From Candidatus Bipolaricaulota bacterium (GTDB lineage Bacteria; Bipolaricaulota; Bipolaricaulia; UBA7950; UBA9294): a stretch of 37,730 bases of DNA. The notes under the pieces are model-generated. The model saw nothing but the letters and a program-made list of their open reading frames with translations, made no database searches and was not told the DNA's origin. This document shows positions 7,407 to 20,501 of this stretch, piece after piece. The position numbers and the translations under genes are program-made. How positions within the stretch are numbered: the first letter of the stretch is position 1; each line of letters starts with the position of its first letter. The DNA is taken from the NCBI GenBank assembly GCA_015485945.1, contig WFSM01000027.1, positions 1 to 37,730 of the forward strand. The letters are read 5' to 3'.

Positions 7407-8230
7407 ACGTACGGCTGTCGTTGATGCGCCGCATCAGCCAGGGGTTTGGGCTCCTGTTGGGCCTGTTCGGATTCACCGGAATCGGAATGACGCACATCAT
7501 CTTCCCCGGACTGCACTGCTACGCGTGCCCACTTGCAGTTACCATCTGCCCGATTGGGTTGGCGCAGAATCTCGTGATCTACGGGACCGTCCCCTACTTT
7601 TGGGTGGCGACGATCGTTGCGTACGGCATCCTCGCCGGGCGCGGGTTCTGCGGCTGGTTCTGTCCGTTCGGAACGCTGAATGACCTGCTGTCGTTCCGCA
7701 AGGTGCGCATCAACGGGATCGCATCCTACTCCAAGTACGCCGTCCTCATTGGGACGATTATCGCGGCGTGGATGTTCGCCGACACGATGTTCTGCAAAGT
7801 ATGCCCGGTCGGGGGGCTGGAGGCATCGATCCCGTACCTGTTCCTCGGGGTGGCGTCGGTCAACCGCCCATTTTTGCTGCACTTGGGGGTGTTGGTGGCG
7901 GTGTTGGCGGGAATGGTGATTATCTCGCGGTTCTGGTGCCGCTACCTGTGCCCGATGGGCGCAATTTTGTCCCTGTTCAACCGGATTAGTTTTCTCCATT
8001 TGACGCTGAACCCCAACCGGTGCTCGTGGTGCGGCGACTGCGCAAAGGCGTGCCCGATGGGATTGCAACCACAAGAAGAATACGACTCGCACAACTGTAC
8101 GAAGTGCGGCGAGTGCACAACCGTCTGTACGATGGACGCCATTCAGCTTACTTTTTCGCCCCAGGTGGAACGCTCACGCCGTGTGATCCCACTATTGCTT
8201 AACCGCGAGCACGATCAGGGCGGTAGCTAG
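7403..8230 (+). CDS. NapH/NosR/NirI-type integral-membrane polyferredoxin (2x[4Fe-4S])
   Basis: Hydrophobic segments carry CYACP, CGWFCPFG, CKVCP and CRYLCPMG, the CX2-3CP motifs of the family. Two C-terminal ferredoxin motifs are CSWCGDCAKACP and CTKCGECTTVC. ATGA overlap with the preceding gene. Confidence 0.8.
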   Translation: MNVRLSLMRRISQGFGLLLGLFGFTGIGMTHIIFPGLHCYACPLAVTICPIGLAQNLVIYGTVPYFWVATIVAYGILAGRGFCGWFCPFGTLNDLLSFRKVRINGIASYSKYAVLIGTIIAAWMFADTMFCKVCPVGGLEASIPYLFLGVASVNRPFLLHLGVLVAVLAGMVIISRFWCRYLCPMGAILSLFNRISFLHLTLNPNRCSWCGDCAKACPMGLQPQEEYDSHNCTKCGECTTVCTMDAIQLTFSPQVERSRRVIPLLLNREHDQGGS

Positions 8231-9379
8231 GCTGATTAGAACCGCGATCCCGACCGCAACAGCAACTTCCTCCCATCCGCCCCCCGTGTAGGCGACGATG
8301 TGCGTCTGTGCGGATACGGCAGCGATCGCTGTCGCCACTCGGGTTCCCGGTCGCTGTGGATCCTCCAGCTGCACAAGGATGGTATACGTGCCGGATGGTC
8401 CGGCGTGCGTGTCGAGCCAGCCGATCACGTTCTTTCCTGGAACGATATCCAACGGTCCGGCAATGAGGGATGCCTTTCCCGGTGATAGTTGCATAGTCAG
8501 GGATGCGGCGTTCGGGCGCCGCGCGTAATACACGGTCCCGTCGGGACCCACCACTTGAACGAACACGAGATACTTCCCGCCGGTAGTAGCGGACAGGATG
8601 ACCGCTACCTCGTTGTGCACTGGCACCGGAGCGAAGGAGAGATGGACCGCTTCCGTGGGGTGGGTTGGGACCGGTCCCGTGGCGACGACGAATCGATCGA
8701 TCGTGTACGCCCCGAACACACCGCGGTTTAGGGTGGTCCGTATCCCGCGGGGATCATGTACGTCGCGGTTGTAGGGATCGGTGATCGTGTACGTCGTTCC
8801 CACCACGCCGGTGATCACTACCCAGTGACAGTTCTCGGTTTTCGCCGTCGTGCCGTGACAATGTGCGCCCCAGTGCACTCCAGCGATCACCGGATATCCA
8901 TGCGCCAGCGCGCTGTCGATCAGGGAACGTGAAGTGGAATCAAGGCCAGTTGTGGCGCTGTTGGTGTGCCCGGACAGGGTGATCCAAGGAATAGCGGTCC
9001 ACTCCAGGCAGCATTTCCCCACGCGATCGGTGGCGCAGCGGCCATATCCGCCGTGGGCACGCAGCCAATCGTTCAGAATGCCGGGATCCATTCCAGTGCG
9101 GACCTTGCCGGTGTCCGACTCCGCTGCGGGGATGGTCAGTTTTATCCCGTAGTAGTCAAGGACAGCGGCGAGCGAGGTGATCAAACATCCGGCTGTTTCG
9201 ATACGGTCCGGGCATCCGTTCGTTCCCATTGGATAGGCGCCCCAATACCCGTGGGAATCGCGGTACGCCTGGTTGAACCCGGGAATCGGCAGCGCCTGTG
9301 CGAATAGCGGAACGATAACCAATATAAGAATTAGTGCCGTGGACAACAGTGCGGTTGCTGTGACCTTGCGGTTCATCAT
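8192..9379 (-). CDS. Secreted, C-terminally membrane-anchored C39-like (clan CA) cysteine peptidase domain protein
   Basis: Signal peptide LLSTALILILVIVPLFAQA. The putative catalytic Cys is in ETAGCLITSLAAVLDYYGI and the His is in CHWVVITGV, as in Peptidase_C39_2-type domains. An Ig-like middle region and the C-terminal TM VAVAVGIAVLISLATALIVLAV follow. I moved the start from the track GTG 9388, which lies inside the SD, to ATG 9379, 8 nt after GGAGG. Confidence 0.6.
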   Translation of the reverse strand: MMNRKVTATALLSTALILILVIVPLFAQALPIPGFNQAYRDSHGYWGAYPMGTNGCPDRIETAGCLITSLAAVLDYYGIKLTIPAAESDTGKVRTGMDPGILNDWLRAHGGYGRCATDRVGKCCLEWTAIPWITLSGHTNSATTGLDSTSRSLIDSALAHGYPVIAGVHWGAHCHGTTAKTENCHWVVITGVVGTTYTITDPYNRDVHDPRGIRTTLNRGVFGAYTIDRFVVATGPVPTHPTEAVHLSFAPVPVHNEVAVILSATTGGKYLVFVQVVGPDGTVYYARRPNAASLTMQLSPGKASLIAGPLDIVPGKNVIGWLDTHAGPSGTYTILVQLEDPQRPGTRVATAIAAVSAQTHIVAYTGGGWEEVAVAVGIAVLISLATALIVLAVKQ

Positions 9380-9384
9380 GCTGA

Positions 9385-10716
9385 TCACCTCCCGGCGTGG
9401 TTCCTGATACCGGCGGCGGCGATCATACCGGTCACCGCAGAATACACGATCCCGCGGGAGTGTCCGGAGGAGTCGCCGGCGACGAAAAATCCGGGAACCT
9501 GCGTTTCCATCTCGTTTGTCACCGGGTAGCGTGTATCGTAGAACTTGATCTCCGGGGCGTACAGGAAGGTGTTGTCCGCGGTCAGTCCCGGGATGATGTT
9601 ATTGAGCTGCTCCAGACCCTCACGTAGATTCACCGCTACCCGATCGGGCAACGCCATCGAGATGTCACCCGGGGTGGCGTCGGTGAGGGTGGGGGAGATC
9701 GTAGCGCGGCGAAGGCGGTCCGCGGTCGACCGTCGCCCGCGGTTCAAGTCCTTCAGGCGCTGGATGATCGGGCGGCCACCTCCGATCGTCGTCGCCAATT
9801 TAGCGATCGCGCGGCCGTACTCAGTGGTGTCCTCCACCGGATCGGTAAGCTCAATGTGGGACAGGAGGGCGAAGTTGGTGTTCTCGGTCTTGACGTCGTT
9901 CTCCGCGTGCCCGTTGACAAGCGAAAATTCCTCATACTTTTCCCGCACCACGAATCCACGCGGATTCGTGCAGAACGTACGCACCATATCATCGTAGGTG
10001 GCGGTGCGTACGCGCAGCTTGGCGTCGTACATCACCCGTTCGATCGGGGTGTACAGCTCAGCGGGGAACTCAACGCGAACTCCAACGTCGATCGGCCCGT
10101 ATTCCGTCTCGATTCCCAGCTGCAGTGCTTCCTCCCGTAGCCAGTACGCGCCGGCACGGCCCGGGGCGGCGATTACGTACCGGGCGGAGATTGTCTCCGC
10201 GCCGTGGAGGATGAAGCGGTCATCAGTCCGCTCGATGCGGGTGATACGGTTCCCAAGCGACGCTTCGATCCCGTGAGAACGCAGATGCTCCCAGAATCGT
10301 TCCACCACCTTGCGCACCGGCGTGGTGCCCATGTGGCGTTGCCGCCCGCTGATAAATTCAATTCCGTACCGGCTTGCCGCTTTTTTTAACGCCATGAGGG
10401 CGTCGGCGTTTTCGCCCGAGTACTTTTTCGGCGCACCAAACCGGGTGAACGTGGCATCGATGCGGTCGATATAGTCCTGAATTTCCTCCGGAGTGCGGCC
10501 GATGCTTGCGGGATCACCGCCGATCTTGGGTGTGAGGTTGAGCTTTCCGTCGGAGAACGCGCCCGCGCCGCCAACCCCAAACGCGATGTGAGTGCGGCGG
10601 GCGACCTCCGGACCACGGTCGATAACCACTGTGGTCAGCCCGCTTTCGATGAGGACATCAGCGGCAAACAGCCCGGCGGGGCCGGCGCCGATGATCGCAA
10701 CGTCTGCTTGTTTCAT
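9385..10716 (-). CDS. COG2509-type FAD-dependent oxidoreductase of unknown substrate
   Basis: Rossmann motif DVAIIGAGPAGLFAA. GVGGAGAFSDGKLN is a hallmark of the uncharacterised FAD-dependent dehydrogenase family, and GFFVAGDSSG lies near the C-terminus. ATGA overlap with the upstream HAD gene. Confidence 0.85.
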   Translation of the reverse strand: MKQADVAIIGAGPAGLFAADVLIESGLTTVVIDRGPEVARRTHIAFGVGGAGAFSDGKLNLTPKIGGDPASIGRTPEEIQDYIDRIDATFTRFGAPKKYSGENADALMALKKAASRYGIEFISGRQRHMGTTPVRKVVERFWEHLRSHGIEASLGNRITRIERTDDRFILHGAETISARYVIAAPGRAGAYWLREEALQLGIETEYGPIDVGVRVEFPAELYTPIERVMYDAKLRVRTATYDDMVRTFCTNPRGFVVREKYEEFSLVNGHAENDVKTENTNFALLSHIELTDPVEDTTEYGRAIAKLATTIGGGRPIIQRLKDLNRGRRSTADRLRRATISPTLTDATPGDISMALPDRVAVNLREGLEQLNNIIPGLTADNTFLYAPEIKFYDTRYPVTNEMETQVPGFFVAGDSSGHSRGIVYSAVTGMIAAAGIRNHAGR

Positions 10717-13468: not shown

Positions 13469-13798
13469 ATGCGTGCCATCGCCCAGGCAGAGCTGCACCG
13501 GCGTGAGCTGTTCGCCGCCGCGACGCGGGTGCTGGACGACGATCCTGATCAAGCGGTGAAACTATTCGCCCAAGCGGCGCAGATCGAGGTATATATCCCC
13601 GAGTTGGAGCAATTAGCAGCCAATAAAGAGACAACACTGGTGGCTCACCCTGACGTACGGGAACACCTGGGCAAGATCTTCTCCCGGGCATACTCGGACA
13701 AGTTCGGCCGCCCGCGCTACGAGCGGCTGTCTGAGCTGATGCGCCTCGCCCGCGAGCAGGCGGGATTAGCGCGGATCAAGGAGCTGTTTTTCCCATGA
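13469..13798 (+). CDS. Hypothetical alpha-helical protein (109 aa), translationally coupled to comEA-like gene
   Basis: This is an in-frame part of track ORF 13280..13798. ATG 13469 is preceded by AGGAGCGAAGG. I recognise no family. ATGA overlap with the next gene. Confidence 0.45.
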   Translation: MRAIAQAELHRRELFAAATRVLDDDPDQAVKLFAQAAQIEVYIPELEQLAANKETTLVAHPDVREHLGKIFSRAYSDKFGRPRYERLSELMRLAREQAGLARIKELFFP

Positions 13799-14187
13799 AT
13801 GTTCGTATTTCCTCGACGCAAGAGCGGGGGTTAATTATTTTGATCGCGGTTGCAATTATTGCCGCTGGGATCGCGTTCTACGTTCCGGTTATGCGCCGTG
13901 CCCGCGTGTCCGCGTCTGCACCGATCATGGTCGAGAATGTGCGTATTATCGTACCCCGTTTTCTGTCTTCACGCCCCAAGGTTAACGTGAACACTGGTGG
14001 AATCAGTGAACTCACGCGTCTCCCCGGCATTGGGGAAACGCTTGCTGCCCGGATCATTGCCTACCGCACTGTACACGGACCGTTCACCCGTGTGGATGAA
14101 CTGAAAGCCGTCTCCGGAATTGGGGACAAGGTGGTAACGCAAGTTCGCGATTTGGTGACGCTAGAACCGAAGAAAAGCGAGCGCTAA
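13795..14187 (+). CDS. comEA: ComEA-like helix-hairpin-helix DNA-binding protein with N-terminal membrane anchor
   Basis: TM segment LIILIAVAIIAAGIAFYV. The region VNVNTGGISELTRLPGIGETLAARIIAYRTVHGPFTRVDELKAVSGIGDKV is the ComEA HhH repeat region. Confidence 0.8.
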   Translation: MNVRISSTQERGLIILIAVAIIAAGIAFYVPVMRRARVSASAPIMVENVRIIVPRFLSSRPKVNVNTGGISELTRLPGIGETLAARIIAYRTVHGPFTRVDELKAVSGIGDKVVTQVRDLVTLEPKKSER

Positions 14188-14199
14188 CCAGCGCTCGCT
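14172..14199 (-). terminator. Intrinsic terminator of the riboswitch-controlled gene, embedded in the comEA 3' end
   Basis: Perfect 10-bp stem AGCGAGCGCT / AGCGCTCGCT (14176-14185 / 14190-14199) with a 4-nt loop. On the minus strand it is followed by TTTTCTT. It lies 30 nt after the stop at 14229. On the plus strand there is no U-tract. Confidence 0.6.
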
Positions 14200-14228: not shown

Positions 14229-14753
14229 TCAGTCACCGGTGATTGTGTACACGACAGTGAGCCCGTAATCACCTGGTTTGTAAGCAGCGGGATTGAGTTT
14301 AACACGGTAATCGATTGTCAGTCGGTATGCACCCCGTTGGCCGTGCGCCAGTGGCTGATCAAATTGGGATATCGGGAAGAACGTTCCACCGTTAACACGG
14401 ACGAGAAAATCGGAAAGAGGCTTTACGTAACTGCCGTCGGTGCTTGTGCCCATGTTTGGTTCCAACGCGTGCACGTTCACCGTCCATGGAATGTTACTTG
14501 CGGCGACCAGGGTGAGCGCTCCGTCCTGTTCGATGTAGCCAGCGGCGAAATCAGCGGCCGTGGGCTGTTTGAGATTAAATCGGGAGACGACGCTCGTCCC
14601 GGTGGTAGCGGATCCGACAACTGTAAGCGATTGGAACGGAAGTACCCGCCACGTTACGGTAACTGCCGCCGTCGTGGAGTTAGCAGCAAGACCGGACACA
14701 GCTACAGTGCATGCTGCAGCGATAAGGAGGAATAATCCAACCCATTGTTTCAT
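14229..14753 (-). CDS. Secreted beta-rich protein of unknown function (possibly pilin/SCPU-like surface subunit)
   Basis: Signal peptide MKQWVGLFLLIAAACTVAVSGLAA. The mature part is rich in alternating T/V strands and ends in PGDYGLTVVYTITGD, which only loosely resembles SCPU/DUF4402-type subunits. It sits downstream of the c-di-GMP riboswitch. Confidence 0.7.
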   Translation of the reverse strand: MKQWVGLFLLIAAACTVAVSGLAANSTTAAVTVTWRVLPFQSLTVVGSATTGTSVVSRFNLKQPTAADFAAGYIEQDGALTLVAASNIPWTVNVHALEPNMGTSTDGSYVKPLSDFLVRVNGGTFFPISQFDQPLAHGQRGAYRLTIDYRVKLNPAAYKPGDYGLTVVYTITGD

Positions 14754-14759
14754 CTTCGC

Positions 14760-14847
14760 ACTTCGGTAACCCGGCTGCCGTCTCAGGCCCGTGGCTTTGC
14801 GCCCCTCACTTCCATGTTCGTGAGGTTTGCCGTTATCGGTCCGAAGT
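14760..14847 (-). promoter_or_regulatory. c-di-GMP-I (GEMM-I) riboswitch aptamer
   Basis: The minus-strand RNA is ACUUCGGACCGAUAACGGCAAACCUCACGAACAUGGAAGUGAGGGGCGCAAAGCCACGGGCCUGAGACGGCAGCCGGGUUACCGAAGU. It shares the conserved blocks GGCAAACC-[hairpin]-G(A/G)CGCAAAGCC-[hairpin]-GC(G/C)GGGUUACCGA(U/A)G with the V. cholerae Vc2 aptamer (from memory). The closing stem is ACUUCGG/CCGAAGU and the hairpin stem is CCUCAC/GUGAGG. The aptamer ends 6 nt before the AUG. Confidence 0.85.
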
Positions 14848-14910
14848 AGTCACCTCCTTAAAAATCCCTCGATCCGGTTTTATTATTCCTCGTCCGCACC
14901 GATTTTAGAC

Positions 14911-15705
14911 TTACCGCACAATTAGCGTGACAGTGAACGAGTTTTGCGCCGGAACATTCTCCCACGAACGGAGATACGCGAACTTAAGGACCTCCGTGCC
15001 GGCTCTCACCGCCTTGTACCGGAACAGGAACCTCCCCCCGGAGCCGATCGCGGTGCCCGCGGGTTGGTAATCCGGACCGGGAACAGCTTGAAGGATCGAA
15101 TCCGCCAGTGACCCCACTAGTTTCCAACGGTAGCCGGTAGTGGGATTGCCGGGAAGGGTTATTATCACCATCTTGCCGGGCTGGATGGTGATCGCTGTTC
15201 CAGCGTCCGCTTTCGTGACGGCGCGATACACGGCAAGCCCAATCCCGCACACCGATGCGTGTGCGCTCATCCGCCCGTATGTCCCCGATGACGTCGGCGA
15301 TACGATTTTTATCGCAGCGCGAAACTCGCCGATCGAAGTTGCCACAATGACGGTGTAGTCACCGGACGGGACAGGTGTGCCCGCATCGTTCCGCAGGTTC
15401 CACAACCCAATCCACCGCGCGGAGTCCGTCGCAGCGATGTCTGCCGCGTATACCGAGGCTCCGTTGCTGGTGCGCACCGTCAGTCCCTGGATGAGAATCG
15501 GTCCGCACATGCACGGACACGGTGTCGTCCGCGTCAGTTCGAGCGCGATCGCGCTGCCCTGTGGAAACACGAACGTACCTACCGTGGCGCGCACCGGTCC
15601 ATTCGTCGTCGCGGAACTGGAAGCGGTTGCCTGTGCCAACCCTGTTGTGGGAATGAGGATTCCGATCAGTCCAATGAGAAGGATACGCGTGAGTACTGCC
15701 TGCAT
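14911..15705 (-). CDS. Secreted FlgD-Ig-like domain fused to a chagasin-family (MEROPS I42) cysteine-peptidase inhibitor domain
   Basis: Signal peptide ILLIGLIGILIPTTGLAQA. WNLRNDAGTPVPSGDYTVIV resembles the FlgD-Ig motif. The C-terminal domain has LPGNPTTGYRW, GSGG and YLRSWE, corresponding to the three chagasin loops NPTTG / GxGG / RPW. The start was moved from GTG 15714 (inside GAGGTGA) to ATG 15705. Confidence 0.8.
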   Translation of the reverse strand: MQAVLTRILLIGLIGILIPTTGLAQATASSSATTNGPVRATVGTFVFPQGSAIALELTRTTPCPCMCGPILIQGLTVRTSNGASVYAADIAATDSARWIGLWNLRNDAGTPVPSGDYTVIVATSIGEFRAAIKIVSPTSSGTYGRMSAHASVCGIGLAVYRAVTKADAGTAITIQPGKMVIITLPGNPTTGYRWKLVGSLADSILQAVPGPDYQPAGTAIGSGGRFLFRYKAVRAGTEVLKFAYLRSWENVPAQNSFTVTLIVR

Positions 15706-15795
15706 TGCTATCACCTCGATTCAGGTACACGCGGTTGTCAGCGCCGTTTCATCGTCCGTTTTATTTTTCGCGGTGGACCAGTACACTACCCACAA

Positions 15796-17275: not shown

Positions 17276-18883
17276 GTGGCTTATTTAACCATTCCGGCGT
17301 ACTTTGCCCGTTCGGTTAGCAAGTTTGCCGACCGGGCTGCTATCGGTAATACACGCCCTCACCCGGGCGAGCCTGACGCGATCACATTTCGTGACCTCGA
17401 TCAACTGTCCGCCCGCGTTGCCTGTGGTCTCGTCGACCTTGGCGTGCAACAAGGAGATCGAGTGGCGATTATGTCCCGTCCCCGTATTCGATTTGCCGCC
17501 GCTCTCCTCGGGATTCTGCGCATCGGGGCATGGATGGTCCCGCTCGACCCCACTCTGGCCAAGCCGGAAGCAGAGACTCTTATCGCGGAGTCGGGAGCGA
17601 AGGTCGTGTTCGCCCCGGGGAAGTTGTTCGACCGTCTGCCGACGGAGGGATTGATCCGCATCGATTTTGACGACGAGACTGGTATGCGGTTTTCTTCCTT
17701 TCTTCGCGCTGGGGATCTACCAACGCCGGAGTTGACCGATGCCGATATCGCGGTACTGGCGTATACATCTGGGACGACCGGCAACTCCAAGGGAGTGTTG
17801 TTGAGCCACGGCAACCTCGTCGCCGACATCGAGGCGTGCATCACCGTGATGCCGATCGACGAAAATGATGTGTTTCTCACTATCGCTCCCTGGCACCACA
17901 TTCTCGGACTGACTACCTCGCTCCTCCTCCCGCTGTATACCGGTGCCCTTGCATTGTACACTGACGACTATCGCGCGATTGCTAAGCTGCTGGAAAAGTA
18001 CGGCGTGACCGTGTTTATCGGCGTCCCCAAGCTGTACCACGCGATGTACGAGAAGCTGATGAATCAGGTACGGGGAAATCTGATGGGACGAATCATGCTC
18101 CGCCTCGCTCCACGGTTGGTGGGCAACAAGGTGAAGCAGGCGCTTACCGGGGGGAAACTGCGGTTCTTCGTGTCCGGGTCGGCTCCGCTTGATCCCAACG
18201 TGAGCCACGGATTCCGGCGGCTGGGCATCGGCCTTCTCGAAGGGTATGGACTTACCGAAACTTCCCCGGTGGTGTCATTCTGCGACCCGTTTTCGCCCAA
18301 GGGAGGCTCGGTTGGTCATCCTCTACCCGGGATCGAGGGCAAGCTGATCACCACCCGTGCCGACGGTGTGGGAGAGCTGCTCGTGCGCGGTCCGACGGTG
18401 ATGCAGGGCTACTACAACAACGAAGCAGCAACACGTGAGGTGCTCGATGCCGATGGCTGGTTTCACACCGGCGACTTGGCGCTGATCGATCCCGACGGCG
18501 AGATATTTCTTAAGGGGCGAGCGAAGAACGTGATCGTGCTGGAAAGTGGGAAAAACGTGTATCCTGAGGAGATCGAGTGGGAGTTCTCCCGCATTCCGTA
18601 CATCGAGGAGGTGCTCGTACGCGGAGAGGAGGAAGAGGGGCACGAGGTGGTGAAGGCGATCGTGTACCCGAACATGGAACGGTTGCGCGCCGTCGGTCAC
18701 GCGGACGACGCACATGATGCGATCTGGCAGGAGATCAAGCGGCGCCAGCAGCGTCTTGCTCCGCACAAGCGCATCCGGCGCAAGAGCGACGTCGTCCTCG
18801 TCGATGCCCCGTTCCCCAAGACGAGCACCATGGACATCAAACGACATCTGTACCGAGGCGGAAATGGCATACCCAACTCTTAA
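17276..18883 (+). CDS. Long-chain acyl-CoA synthetase (AMP-forming, FAA1/COG1022 type), copy 1
   Basis: GTG start after AAGGAG. AMP-binding motif LAYTSGTTGNSKGVLLSHGNL, followed by GYGLTETSP, WFHTGDL and GRAKNVIVLESGKNVYPEEIEWE. Confidence 0.85.
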   Translation: MAYLTIPAYFARSVSKFADRAAIGNTRPHPGEPDAITFRDLDQLSARVACGLVDLGVQQGDRVAIMSRPRIRFAAALLGILRIGAWMVPLDPTLAKPEAETLIAESGAKVVFAPGKLFDRLPTEGLIRIDFDDETGMRFSSFLRAGDLPTPELTDADIAVLAYTSGTTGNSKGVLLSHGNLVADIEACITVMPIDENDVFLTIAPWHHILGLTTSLLLPLYTGALALYTDDYRAIAKLLEKYGVTVFIGVPKLYHAMYEKLMNQVRGNLMGRIMLRLAPRLVGNKVKQALTGGKLRFFVSGSAPLDPNVSHGFRRLGIGLLEGYGLTETSPVVSFCDPFSPKGGSVGHPLPGIEGKLITTRADGVGELLVRGPTVMQGYYNNEAATREVLDADGWFHTGDLALIDPDGEIFLKGRAKNVIVLESGKNVYPEEIEWEFSRIPYIEEVLVRGEEEEGHEVVKAIVYPNMERLRAVGHADDAHDAIWQEIKRRQQRLAPHKRIRRKSDVVLVDAPFPKTSTMDIKRHLYRGGNGIPNS

Positions 18884-20501
18884 CGAACTGTTCGATACCA
18901 CGGTGCGGCAGCACTCCGATCGGATCGCATTGCGCATGCCGATCCCCAAGGAACGGAAGCGCGGCGGTGGAATCCGGTTGGTGCTGAACGAAATCTCCTA
19001 CGACCGGTTGGGGGAGATGGTAGGGCGGTTCGCGGCCGCGCTCCGCGAGCTGGGAGTGAACAAGGGTGATAAGGTAGCACTGATCTCCAAGCCACGGGCG
19101 GCGTGGGTGACTGCATTCTTCGCGATCATCCGGCGAGGAGCAGCGGTTGTTCCACTCGATCCCGATCTGCAAAAGGCGGAGATTGAGCGGATCCTCGTCG
19201 AAGCCGAGGTAAAAGGAGCGGTCATTTCCGGCCTGAAGGAAGAAGCAGTCTCTGCGATTAAAAAAGACGATCTGCCCGACATGTTTATTGTGTCGATGGA
19301 TCGCCCGGCAGGAGAGGGTATCCTGTTTCTCGACGCCCTTCTCCTCGGGAGAAAGCCGATCGCGGCGGAAAATGTGTCGCCGGATGACATGACGATCCTG
19401 ATGTACACATCGGGAACGACCGGAAACGCTAAGGGGGCAATGCTCCTCCATCGCAATATTTCCTCCAACGCCCTCACCGCACTCAAGATCGTTGACCTAT
19501 CCGCAGCCGATAACTTTCTCACGATCGTGCCGTGGTATCACATCTACGGGCTCACGATCACCCTGATCACCCCACTGATTGCCGGTGCGACGACGACCTA
19601 CGCCCCGGTCGATCGTAATCTCAGTCAGGTGATGAAACGGGCACATCCGACGATCATCCTTGGAGTGCCGAAGCTGTATCACGTCCTGTACGCGCGTATC
19701 ATGGAATCGATTGAGAAGAGCTGGATCAAGCGGATGATCTATCACGCGTCGCCGACGCTGATGGGAAAACTGGTGAAACGGACGCTGTTTGGGAAGGGAT
19801 TTAGGTTCTTTACCTCCGGAGGAGCGCCCCTCAGTCCGGAAGTGGCGCAGGGATTTAGGCGAATGGGCATTGGGATCATGGAGGGGTACGGCCTTACCGA
19901 GACAGCACCGGTGCTCACCATGAGTCACAAATTCGCGACCGCACCGGGGATGGTTCCGTTCCCTGAAGTGGAGGTACGAATAGACAATCCGGATGATGCC
20001 GGGGTTGGCGAAATCGTCGCTCACGGACCAAACATCATGGCAGGCTACTATAAAAATCCAGCGGCAACTGCCGAGGTGATCGATCCCGACGGTTGGTTTC
20101 ACACCGGTGATCTCGGCCGCATCGAGGACGATCGCATCATCATCTCCGGCCGGGCGAAGAACGTAATCGTGCTCGAGACGGGGAAGAACGTGTACCCGGA
20201 AGAGATCGAGTGGGAACTTGCTACCATTCCCGAGATTGAGGAAATCATGGTGTACGAGGACGTGCGTCAGGGAGCGCCGGCGGTGGCAGCCAAGGTTTAT
20301 CCGAATTGGACCGCGCTTAAACAGCAGGAAATCATGGATCCGGACAAGGCCATCGATCTAATCTGGGATCGGATTCGGGAGAAGAACGAGAATCTCGCCG
20401 TGTTTAAACGGATTAAGTACAAGGATCTCGTCACGTTGGTTGACGAACCGTTTGAAAAGAGCGTCAAGCTTGATATCAAGCGCTACAAATACAAGTCTTA
20501 G
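18864..20501 (+). CDS. Long-chain acyl-CoA synthetase (AMP-forming, FAA1/COG1022 type), copy 2
   Basis: The start is placed at ATG 18864 (MAYPTLNELFDTTVRQHSDRIALR) after GAGG, not at the track start 18714. Motifs are LMYTSGTTGNAKGAMLLHRNI, GYGLTETAP, WFHTGDL and GRAKNVIVLETGKNVYPEEIEWE. It overlaps copy 1 by 20 nt. Confidence 0.85.
   Translation: MAYPTLNELFDTTVRQHSDRIALRMPIPKERKRGGGIRLVLNEISYDRLGEMVGRFAAALRELGVNKGDKVALISKPRAAWVTAFFAIIRRGAAVVPLDPDLQKAEIERILVEAEVKGAVISGLKEEAVSAIKKDDLPDMFIVSMDRPAGEGILFLDALLLGRKPIAAENVSPDDMTILMYTSGTTGNAKGAMLLHRNISSNALTALKIVDLSAADNFLTIVPWYHIYGLTITLITPLIAGATTTYAPVDRNLSQVMKRAHPTIILGVPKLYHVLYARIMESIEKSWIKRMIYHASPTLMGKLVKRTLFGKGFRFFTSGGAPLSPEVAQGFRRMGIGIMEGYGLTETAPVLTMSHKFATAPGMVPFPEVEVRIDNPDDAGVGEIVAHGPNIMAGYYKNPAATAEVIDPDGWFHTGDLGRIEDDRIIISGRAKNVIVLETGKNVYPEEIEWELATIPEIEEIMVYEDVRQGAPAVAAKVYPNWTALKQQEIMDPDKAIDLIWDRIREKNENLAVFKRIKYKDLVTLVDEPFEKSVKLDIKRYKYKS

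Follow-up and report, generated by a model that had tools for sequence, protein, structure and literature searches.

A c-di-GMP-I aptamer between a conserved Shine-Dalgarno box and the start codon of a secreted-protein gene in Bipolaricaulota: a candidate split ribosome-binding site

Introduction

How might translation begin at a gene whose strong Shine-Dalgarno (SD) box is separated from the start codon by a complete folded aptamer? The question is raised by a 37,730-nucleotide (nt) stretch of DNA from Candidatus Bipolaricaulota (contig WFSM01000027.1 of assembly GCA_015485945.1), referred to at its full length as the window, whose minus strand carries an aptamer of the cyclic di-GMP (c-di-GMP)-I class, also called GEMM-I, directly upstream of the gene for a secreted protein. 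An initial annotation recognized this aptamer within an 88-nt segment, 14760-14847 (-), and tied translational control to its closeness to the AUG. The aptamer is indeed contained in that segment, but the segment begins inside a larger conserved unit, 14860-14751, and the SD box at the upstream end of this unit was missed. The arrangement of the whole unit suggests an answer to which we would assign an even chance: the SD box and the start codon may be the two parts of a split ribosome-binding site (RBS) in which c-di-GMP chooses the register of the helix that closes the aptamer, and in this way controls translation of a monocistronic mRNA.

The comparison is based on leaders of the same gene family, 27 in all, comprising that of the window, 13 from genome loci, three from a metagenome scan and ten from exact-protein look-ups. 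The pattern used for the metagenome scan, GGTGA N2-6 TTCGG N7-12 GGCAAACC, proved too loose, as real aptamers were present in 3 of the 120 returned stretches (L096, L105, and L121). The aptamer stands directly upstream of the gene in all 26 leaders in which it can be delimited, including that of the most divergent homologue (L140), and in the 27th leader (L143) the aptamer core is degenerate. Counts of structure and conservation mostly refer to an alignment of 26 leaders (A2), and the promoter was read in 25.

The aptamer and its ligand pocket

The aptamer consists of the following parts:

14761-14840, minus strand: c-di-GMP-I aptamer (limits of the Rfam match), both hairpins paired and carrying compensatory changes
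14830-14799, minus strand: first hairpin, with a CCUCAC/GUGAGG stem
14796-14768, minus strand: second hairpin, 9-10 base pairs (bp)

Its presence where the initial annotation had placed it is confirmed by Rfam cmscan, which returned a match to the c-di-GMP-I clan (CL00126) at 14840-14761 (-) with E = 1.3e-11 over the whole window, the sole match at gathering threshold within these 37.7 kb; a clan match was likewise obtained in 13/13 genome loci encoding homologues. The sequence blocks GGCAAACC, CCUCAC/GUGAGG, GGCGCAAAGCC, the second hairpin, and GGGUUACCGAAG were confirmed by direct reading. Across the alignment, pairing amounts to 100% in the first hairpin and 98.8% in the second, and five pairs show compensatory changes; when the partners are slid by 1-3 columns as a control, only 25-50% pairing is obtained. 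Unconstrained RNAalifold recovers the same two hairpins together with a 5-bp closing helix, UUCGG/CCGAA. The closing helix drawn in the initial annotation is real as far as ACUUCGG/CCGAAGU is concerned, its five core pairs being present in 26/26 leaders, but the ACC/GGU pairing added to it is wrong, since GGU belongs to the second hairpin, at its base (84-87 with 110-113 in alignment A2, 98.8% paired). As had also been noted, there is no GNRA tetraloop on the first hairpin, whose loop is GAACAUGGAA in the window and 8-17 nt across the family, and the short second hairpin has no internal loop of receptor size, so that the term "receptor-less" is fair.

The c-di-GMP-I aptamer contacts its ligand through G20, A47, and C92, with A47 intercalated between the two ligand guanines (PMC4744006). 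The equivalents in the window are G14831, A14798, and C14766, each invariant in 26/26 aligned leaders, and the interhelical pair C44-G83 corresponds, by alignment to the Rfam consensus, to C14801 and G14775, conserved as C in 25/26 and as G in 26/26 leaders. The family resembles RF01051 riboswitches such as Vc2 and Vc1 of Vibrio cholerae in its two hairpins, in its GGCAAACC and ACGCAAAGCC cores, in these ligand contacts and the interhelical pair, in a canonical closing helix (P1) with a J1/2 of 4-5 nt, and in its place in the 5′ untranslated region of a gene for a surface or secreted protein. Unlike Vc2 and Vc1, it has no GNRA tetraloop/receptor, its first loop being 8-17 nt and its second hairpin short, and its expression platform flanks the aptamer at either end, with the SD upstream and the P1 strands duplicated in a way that would permit two registers. 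Riboswitches for cyclic AMP-GMP (c-AMP-GMP; GEMM-Ib) reportedly carry an A at the equivalent of G20, as Kellenberger and Nelson are said to have described in 2015, whereas the position is G in 26/26 leaders, which agrees with the preference for c-di-GMP read from it in the initial annotation. The c-AMP-GMP riboswitch class is mentioned in PMC7266159. Judged by its nucleotides, the window RNA is a standard c-di-GMP-I aptamer with a canonical pocket and without the tetraloop/receptor.

A Shine-Dalgarno box upstream of the aptamer

Three elements precede the aptamer:

14850-14860, minus strand: upstream SD box UAAGGAGGUGA, core GGAGG at 14857-14853, 99 nt from the AUG
14882-14887, minus strand: -10 box AATAAT, with AGG before it; a NAnAAT box is found in 25/25 leaders
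14905-14910, minus strand: -35-like box GTCTAA, immediately following the stop codon of the preceding gene (by eye)

The sequence GG(A/G)GGUG(A/G) stands 5′ of the aptamer in 27/27 leaders, at a linear distance of 93-104 nt between GGAGG and the AUG, and in the window the box amounts to 11 nt complementary to the canonical 3′ tail of 16S rRNA. The duplex it would form with the anti-SD has an energy of -13.4 kcal/mol in the window and a mean of -11.9 kcal/mol in 26 leaders. For the 18 nt before the AUG the mean is -3.4 and the best value -5.9 kcal/mol in these leaders, to be read against a mean of -3.3 kcal/mol for random 18-mers and a median of -6.9 kcal/mol for 29 other genes of the window, many of which have GGAGG 4-7 nt before the start codon. 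No SD adjoins the AUG, anti-SD pairing near it being at the random level in all 26 leaders. The initial annotation was correct that 6 nt separate the aptamer from the gene (GCGAAG, between 14760 and the AUG at 14753-14751), and the translational control it proposed is likely, since the window has no terminator between aptamer and AUG; the 6-nt proximity, however, is not the mechanism, as the SD lies upstream of the aptamer. We infer that this upstream box is the SD used for initiation.

The -10 box ends 19-33 nt before the SD box in 25/25 leaders, and from this position it follows that the SD box is transcribed, at an estimated 12-26 nt from the 5′ end. In the window, transcription would start near 14875. 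The leader between promoter and SD box is not conserved. About 17 nt upstream of the -10 box, GTCTA(A/G) is seen in most of the 25 leaders (by eye, uncounted); a generic sigma-70 scan did not call the -35-like GTCTAA, an element that differs from TTGACA. The GTCTA(A/G)/AGG-NAtAAT pair may be a promoter consensus of the lineage or the site of a regulator.

Several other roles for the box and its surroundings were considered and rejected. An upstream open reading frame (ORF), or translation through the aptamer, would need an AUG, GUG, or UUG that the SD box could serve, and there is none; the frame from SD to AUG is open in the window, but the distances across the family are not congruent modulo 3. 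A start at the AUG in the loop of the second hairpin, as in some public gene calls, is contradicted by the absence of that AUG from the window and five other leaders. The calls P0007, P0009, and P0017 do begin there (MAAGLPK(T/A)K-MKRW...), with nine spurious residues and the riboswitch annotated as coding sequence. An OFF state in which the SD (GGAG) folds locally onto the distal strand of the closing helix (CUUC) would have four weak pairs only and is impossible in leaders with GGGGG or AUUCGG, and GGA motifs of CsrA type in the first loop are not conserved.

Strands and registers of the closing helix

The closing helix draws on two strands on the 5′ side of the aptamer and two sites on its 3′ side:

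14841-14848, minus strand: distal 5′ strand UACUUCGG (CUUCGG at 14846-14841), able to pair with either of the two 3′ sites
14837-14840, minus strand: proximal 5′ strand ACCG, canonical P1 register, 5 nt before G20, aligned to positions 1-4 of the RF03167 P1
14759-14766, minus strand: 3′ site 1 CCGAAGUG, whose first C is C92; partner of the distal strand (register A) or of the proximal CG (register B)
14754-14758, minus strand: 3′ site 2 CGAAG, which repeats the 3′ strand immediately before the AUG

All four are conserved, as is their geometry. The distal strand begins 4-7 nt after GGAGG in 26/26 leaders, and in all of them its core UUCGG is complementary to CCGAA of site 1 over the five core pairs. 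The sixth pair is C-G or U-G in 20/26 leaders, and the seventh, scored in eight, is G-U in three and A-U in two, with U-A seen by eye in L003 and L004. From this helix to the AUG there are 5-7 nt in 25/26 leaders. The proximal YCG (14839-14837), which equals positions 3-4 of the RF03167 P1, retains its CG in 25/26 leaders; it and the distal strand are rivals for one and the same 3′ CG. In 22/26 leaders at least 4 bp can form between site 2 and the distal strand, and in 17 of the 22 this helix has its end precisely at -1; on the fixed alignment site 2 is 74% paired. The SD-AUG spacing measured through the closing helix, predicted from the conserved complementarity, is 9-13 nt for register A, as against 4-7 nt for register B.

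Nearest-neighbour energies from constrained folds favour register A over register B by a mean of 2.7 kcal/mol. When the proximal P1 is enforced, the distal strand pairs with positions -6 to -1 in 19/26 leaders, and of the five positions -5 to -1 an average of 1.8 are paired in register A, as against 3.7 in register B.

Two leaders depart from the common pattern. In L140 the strand that follows the SD, GGCAACC, pairs with GGUUGCC, a 3′ partner displaced 5 nt upstream, and the AUG is closer too, so that on sequence L140 retains the geometry of 5 + 5 nt, with compensation in geometry rather than in sequence. Its bridging helix uses the base of the second hairpin together with C92 and C93 and clashes with the folded aptamer, and L140 has no register-B counterpart. 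This leader, at L140:1075-1305 and belonging to P0035, also has the loop of its second hairpin enlarged by an insertion of ∼110 nt, rich in repeated GGGUU and GAACCC units and presumably forming a long additional stem, with the core nucleotides intact. In L143 the closing helix carries one compensatory double change, CUCGG/CCGAG. Over L143:720-920, GGCCAACC replaces GGCAAACC and GUGCCAAGGC replaces GCGCAAAGCC, with the SD box and the compensated helix retained; L143 may be a decaying or re-purposed riboswitch, or may reflect errors in a low-coverage Logan contig. Taken at the level of sequence, the scheme of two registers accounts for all conserved nucleotides outside the aptamer core.

A split ribosome-binding site with two registers

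Translation probably hinges on the folding of the closing helix, as the SD and the AUG would be usable jointly only once this helix sets them side by side. In register A, the distal CUUCGG would pair with CCGAAG at the 3′ end of the aptamer and occupy C92, with the SD then at 9-13 nt from the AUG and -5 to -1 unpaired. Register B would instead join the proximal CG, in the canonical P1 position, to the same 3′ CG and release C92 for the ligand, and the displaced distal strand would slip onto the CGAAG ending at -1, giving a spacing of 4-7 nt with the AUG flush with the helix. Ligand binding needs C92 free and P1 in its canonical form, and for this reason c-di-GMP should favour register B; conversely, the sequestration of C92 marks register A as the ligand-free form. 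Binding could plausibly overcome the 2.7 kcal/mol preference for register A, and the ligand would in this way select the register. Stated in full, the aptamer would be the intervening structure of a split RBS in which c-di-GMP-dependent "helix slipping" by one repeat unit changes the spacing (∼11 vs. ∼6 nt) and the pairing of -5 to -1 without sequestering either the SD or the AUG, a proposal that we put forward tentatively and rate somewhat short of an even chance.

The juxtaposition of a distant SD and AUG by RNA structure has an experimentally established precedent in bacteriophage T4, where an intervening hairpin cuts the SD-AUG spacing from 22 to 5 nt in gene 38 and from 27 to 11 nt in gene 25 (PMC3014915). 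As in these genes, the SD and AUG of the window family are too distant in sequence and are here predicted to be brought together by the structure between them; unlike the small constitutive hairpins of T4, that structure is an 80-nt ligand-binding aptamer whose closing helix may shift register, and a shiftable helix would make the juxtaposition regulated. A c-di-GMP sensor that decides whether an mRNA is translatable also has a parallel in Clostridioides difficile, where splicing is said, in work attributed to Lee et al. in 2010, to join the ribosome-binding site to the start codon. The sensor there, a c-di-GMP-II aptamer, is linked to a group I ribozyme, and splicing makes the mRNA translatable (PMC9481103). 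That system differs from the one proposed here in its aptamer class (II rather than I), in its covalent splicing, and in its need for GTP, whereas folding alone would suffice in the window family. E. coli thrS, too, has been presented as an example of a split ribosome-binding site, one with room for a long hairpin (PMC3936740). In a limited full-text library, no natural SD upstream of an aptamer, no split-RBS riboswitch, and no aptamer between SD and start codon was found.

On the direction of control we lean, by a narrow degree, toward register A as the ligand-free ON state and register B as the c-di-GMP-bound OFF state. In favour of repression, positions -5 to -1 are open in register A, whose spacing resembles that of T4 gene 25, and paired in register B; in addition, the bridging helix of L140 is incompatible with a folded aptamer, and L140 has no register-B equivalent. 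In favour of activation, the 4-7 nt spacing of register B is the norm of the genome, and the register-B helix, by stopping exactly at -1, nearly always leaves the AUG out, as if to present the start codon and not to occlude it. Adhesin and pilus genes are, moreover, commonly induced by c-di-GMP.

A number of points weigh against the split-RBS reading or against parts of it. By analogy with T4 gene 38, a flush helix with a spacing of 4-7 nt could be the active form and not the repressed one. The 80-nt folded aptamer is far larger than the T4 hairpins, and we know of no demonstration that the 30S subunit tolerates an 80-nt folded insert. In thermodynamic folds the SD core is mostly paired with CU-rich codons in both registers in 22/26 leaders, and if this pairing is real, the SD would be masked whatever the state of the ligand. 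The closing helices are nearly invariant and their covariation is thin, consisting of one double change at site 1 and the variable sixth and seventh pairs, and site 2 is missing or poor in 4/26 leaders. The anti-SD of this organism's 16S rRNA, finally, was taken to be canonical.

Alternative explanations

The alternative that survives best, although we consider it unlikely, is a conventional translational c-di-GMP-I riboswitch, in which P1 would hide or expose a weak purine stretch at the AUG (GAAG/AAGG), or an AUG with no SD, and in which the upstream box would be either a stabilizer of the STAB-SD type, where a bound 30S subunit blocks the 5′ exonuclease, or a standby site. STAB-SD mRNAs retain an RBS of their own at the start codon. 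Strong SDs without a start codon stabilize mRNAs of Bacilli, as in the STAB-SD of cryIIIA, and the box of the window family is like them in being a strong SD-like sequence near the 5′ end of a long leader with no start codon nearby (PMC3997798); ribosomes are also able to load at distant standby sites (PMC3936740). Stabilization would explain both the conservation of the SD box and its estimated position 12-26 nt from the 5′ end, while a few leaders do contain AAGG(A) inside the 3′ strand and the best energy near the AUG reaches -5.9 kcal/mol. Unlike STAB-SD mRNAs, however, the window family has no RBS at the start codon, since near-AUG pairing with the anti-SD is random-like in 26/26 leaders, whereas the genome of the window otherwise uses strong SDs, and its box stands in a fixed register with the closing helix. 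A stabilizer does not require a fixed offset of 4-7 nt between SD and helix, does not predict the joint shift of helix and AUG in L140, and gives no account of a site 2 that ends exactly at -1.

A second alternative, which appears quite improbable, retains the SD as functional but has it hidden in long-range pairing with CU-rich codons 7-13, in the part encoding the signal peptide, so that the state of the aptamer would alter the stability of the masking helix and not the register. In the window the putative partner is the following:

14723-14730, minus strand: CCUCCUUA, codons 8-11, complement of UAAGGAGG in the SD box; a possible masking helix, weakly indicated by RNAfold pairing

In RNAfold ensembles the SD is unpaired with a mean probability of 0.18, its partners lying at +19 to +39 in ∼16/25 leaders, and the window offers an 8-bp perfect complement, UAAGGAGG:CCUCCUUA, between 14860-14853 and 14730-14723, for which comparison with synonymous recodings gives p ∼0.07. 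The family-wide signal is weak, however, with a cluster-level mean z of -0.46 (t = -1.8), and pairing with the cognate codons (-12.5 kcal/mol) barely differs from pairing with non-cognate ones (-11.6 kcal/mol); signal-peptide codons are CU-rich in any case. As the masking helix is predicted in both registers, it would alone give no switch.

The remaining alternative concerns the ligand rather than the ribosome. The winning Rfam model for the window copy is not RF01051, which the initial annotation had expected to confirm the aptamer, but RF03167 (c-di-GMP-I-GGC), with 59.0 bits, exactly its threshold (59). The expected match is borne out at the level of the clan, and a second clan model also lies at or above its own gathering score in the window, masked by clan competition, which bounds the RF01051 score of the window copy to 35-59 bits (threshold 35). 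RF03167 is still the top model when the P1 strands are trimmed. Among the 13 related loci, the two models alternate with close scores (54-64.5 bits), RF01051 being the top model in seven (54-63 bits) and RF03167 in six, and the closest relative (L001) goes to RF01051 with 62.1 bits; the choice between them evidently depends on small differences in loop details. The window RNA is like RF03167 in overall length, architecture, short second hairpin, and a cg...cgaag P1, and this likeness is the reason why RF03167 scores slightly higher for the window copy. The consensus lines of the two models, from which the meaning of the "GGC" label was inferred, differ at one core position, GACGCGAAgCc in RF03167 and GACGCAAAgCc in RF01051. 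At this position, which aligns to Vc2 A47, the variant consensus has G (CGCGAA), and UGC stands before its P1, whereas the window and its relatives have A (CGCAAA, in the window and 26/26 leaders) and mostly UAC; the G that distinguishes RF03167 is absent from the window and from every one of the 26 leaders, and because position 47 is A the RF03167 label was overridden. That the RNA is a GGC variant sensing a ligand other than c-di-GMP, as the top rank of RF03167 in the window and six of the 13 loci might suggest, is therefore very improbable indeed, given a canonical A47 equivalent throughout, a window score that just touches the threshold, the assignment of the closest relative to RF01051, and the ease with which the models trade places.

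The regulated gene and its neighbourhood

Downstream of the start codon lie:

14229-14753, minus strand: regulated gene (ORF), encoding a 174-aa secreted protein with a signal peptide; its AlphaFold model is a weakly pilin-like β-sandwich
14176-14199, minus strand: intrinsic terminator after the gene, a 10-bp GC-rich stem followed by a T run

The gene is considered monocistronic because the terminator directly follows it. Its product is, as first described, secreted and uncharacterized, with a signal peptide and no sequence match in Pfam, NCBIfam, or the Protein Data Bank (PDB). Homologues form only 38 clusters among 5.8 billion proteins, and the only source names given for them are Candidatus Acetothermia/Bipolaricaulota; genome bins with the gene are labelled Bipolaricaulota, Acetothermia, or Thermotogae, the last probably by mis-binning.

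The AlphaFold2 model comprises a confident C-terminal β-sandwich (pLDDT ∼90) and leaves the conserved N-terminal residues 15-56 unplaced. The most conserved stretch of the protein, V-x-W-x-V-L-P-F-Q-S-L-T (residues 24-56), lies in this unplaced part (pLDDT ∼31), as do the invariant W35, P39, S42, and L43. Subunits assembled by donor-strand exchange have a conserved terminal strand that is left unplaced in models of the monomer. Foldseek searches of the PDB returned mostly pilus subunits of this kind, of the chaperone-usher and thread types, with weak scores (E = 3e-3 to 5e-2, TM = 0.35-0.45), the top matches being PapA, the PapG pilin domain, CfaB, FimA, CsuA/B, CS17, and the 0406 thread of Sulfolobus (Saci_0406). 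The modelled structure is compatible with the conserved unplaced stretch being a donor strand for complementation between subunits, and a pilin-like filament subunit is a lead only for the identity of the product. No chaperone or usher gene was seen near the riboswitch gene.

The absence of GGDEF, EAL, and PilZ genes from the window, remarked upon in the initial annotation, holds for all large ORFs scanned, in which no HD-GYP domain was found either; other parts of Bipolaricaulota genomes are reported to encode GGDEF proteins (PMC10086821).

The order of genes around the riboswitch is kept among relatives, with a gene for an I42 inhibitor or Q salvage, the riboswitch gene, a convergent ComEA-like gene, GDT1, SurE, and RsmD. 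The upstream neighbour in the window, at 14911-15714 (-), encodes a secreted 267-aa protein with a C-terminal peptidase inhibitor domain of the chagasin family (I42; E = 8e-21), and its synteny with the riboswitch gene extends to several relatives (L135, L136, and L137). On the other side, convergent to the riboswitch gene, the segment 13280-14187 (+) holds a ComEA-like HHH_3 protein (13795-14187) preceded by a conserved 172-aa ORF without a family match, and this pair is syntenic in nearly all related loci. Further away, a secreted Peptidase_C39-like protein is encoded at 8192-9388 (-), and two adjacent ORFs of 535 and 595 aa at 17276-20501 (+) have, by eye, the look of AMP-dependent (acyl-CoA) ligases; as listed (17276-18883 and 18714-20501) they overlap by 170 nt, and the second probably begins at a later ATG. 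Among the related loci, a group II intron domain is matched near the riboswitch at L005:83-232, and RNase P RNA lies ∼2 kb downstream of the riboswitch gene at L011:2473-2799 and L012:6106-6431.

Implications

For users of RNA annotation, the locus carries the practical warning that clan competition in Rfam can put the label of an orphan "GGC" variant on aptamers with a canonical pocket. If the split-RBS reading is true, the family would represent a new kind of expression platform, in which control is exerted through the geometry of SD and start codon and not by sequestration, and the 30S subunit would be able to initiate across a folded aptamer of 80 nt. Its compact, modular build (SD, 5 nt, helix, aptamer, helix, AUG) would make such a platform easy to test and convenient for reuse in synthetic biology.

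Bipolaricaulota is, to our knowledge, a phylum without cultured representatives. The c-di-GMP-related genes noted for it so far are those for GGDEF proteins only (PMC10086821). A plain c-di-GMP-I riboswitch would be an ordinary member of its class, and yet it provides a direct link to c-di-GMP in this phylum, marking a small, phylum-restricted family of secreted and possibly filament-forming proteins as a target of the second messenger. Were the split ribosome-binding site to prove correct as well, the arrangement would be one that has been kept together with its gene across an uncultivated lineage at the level of a phylum.

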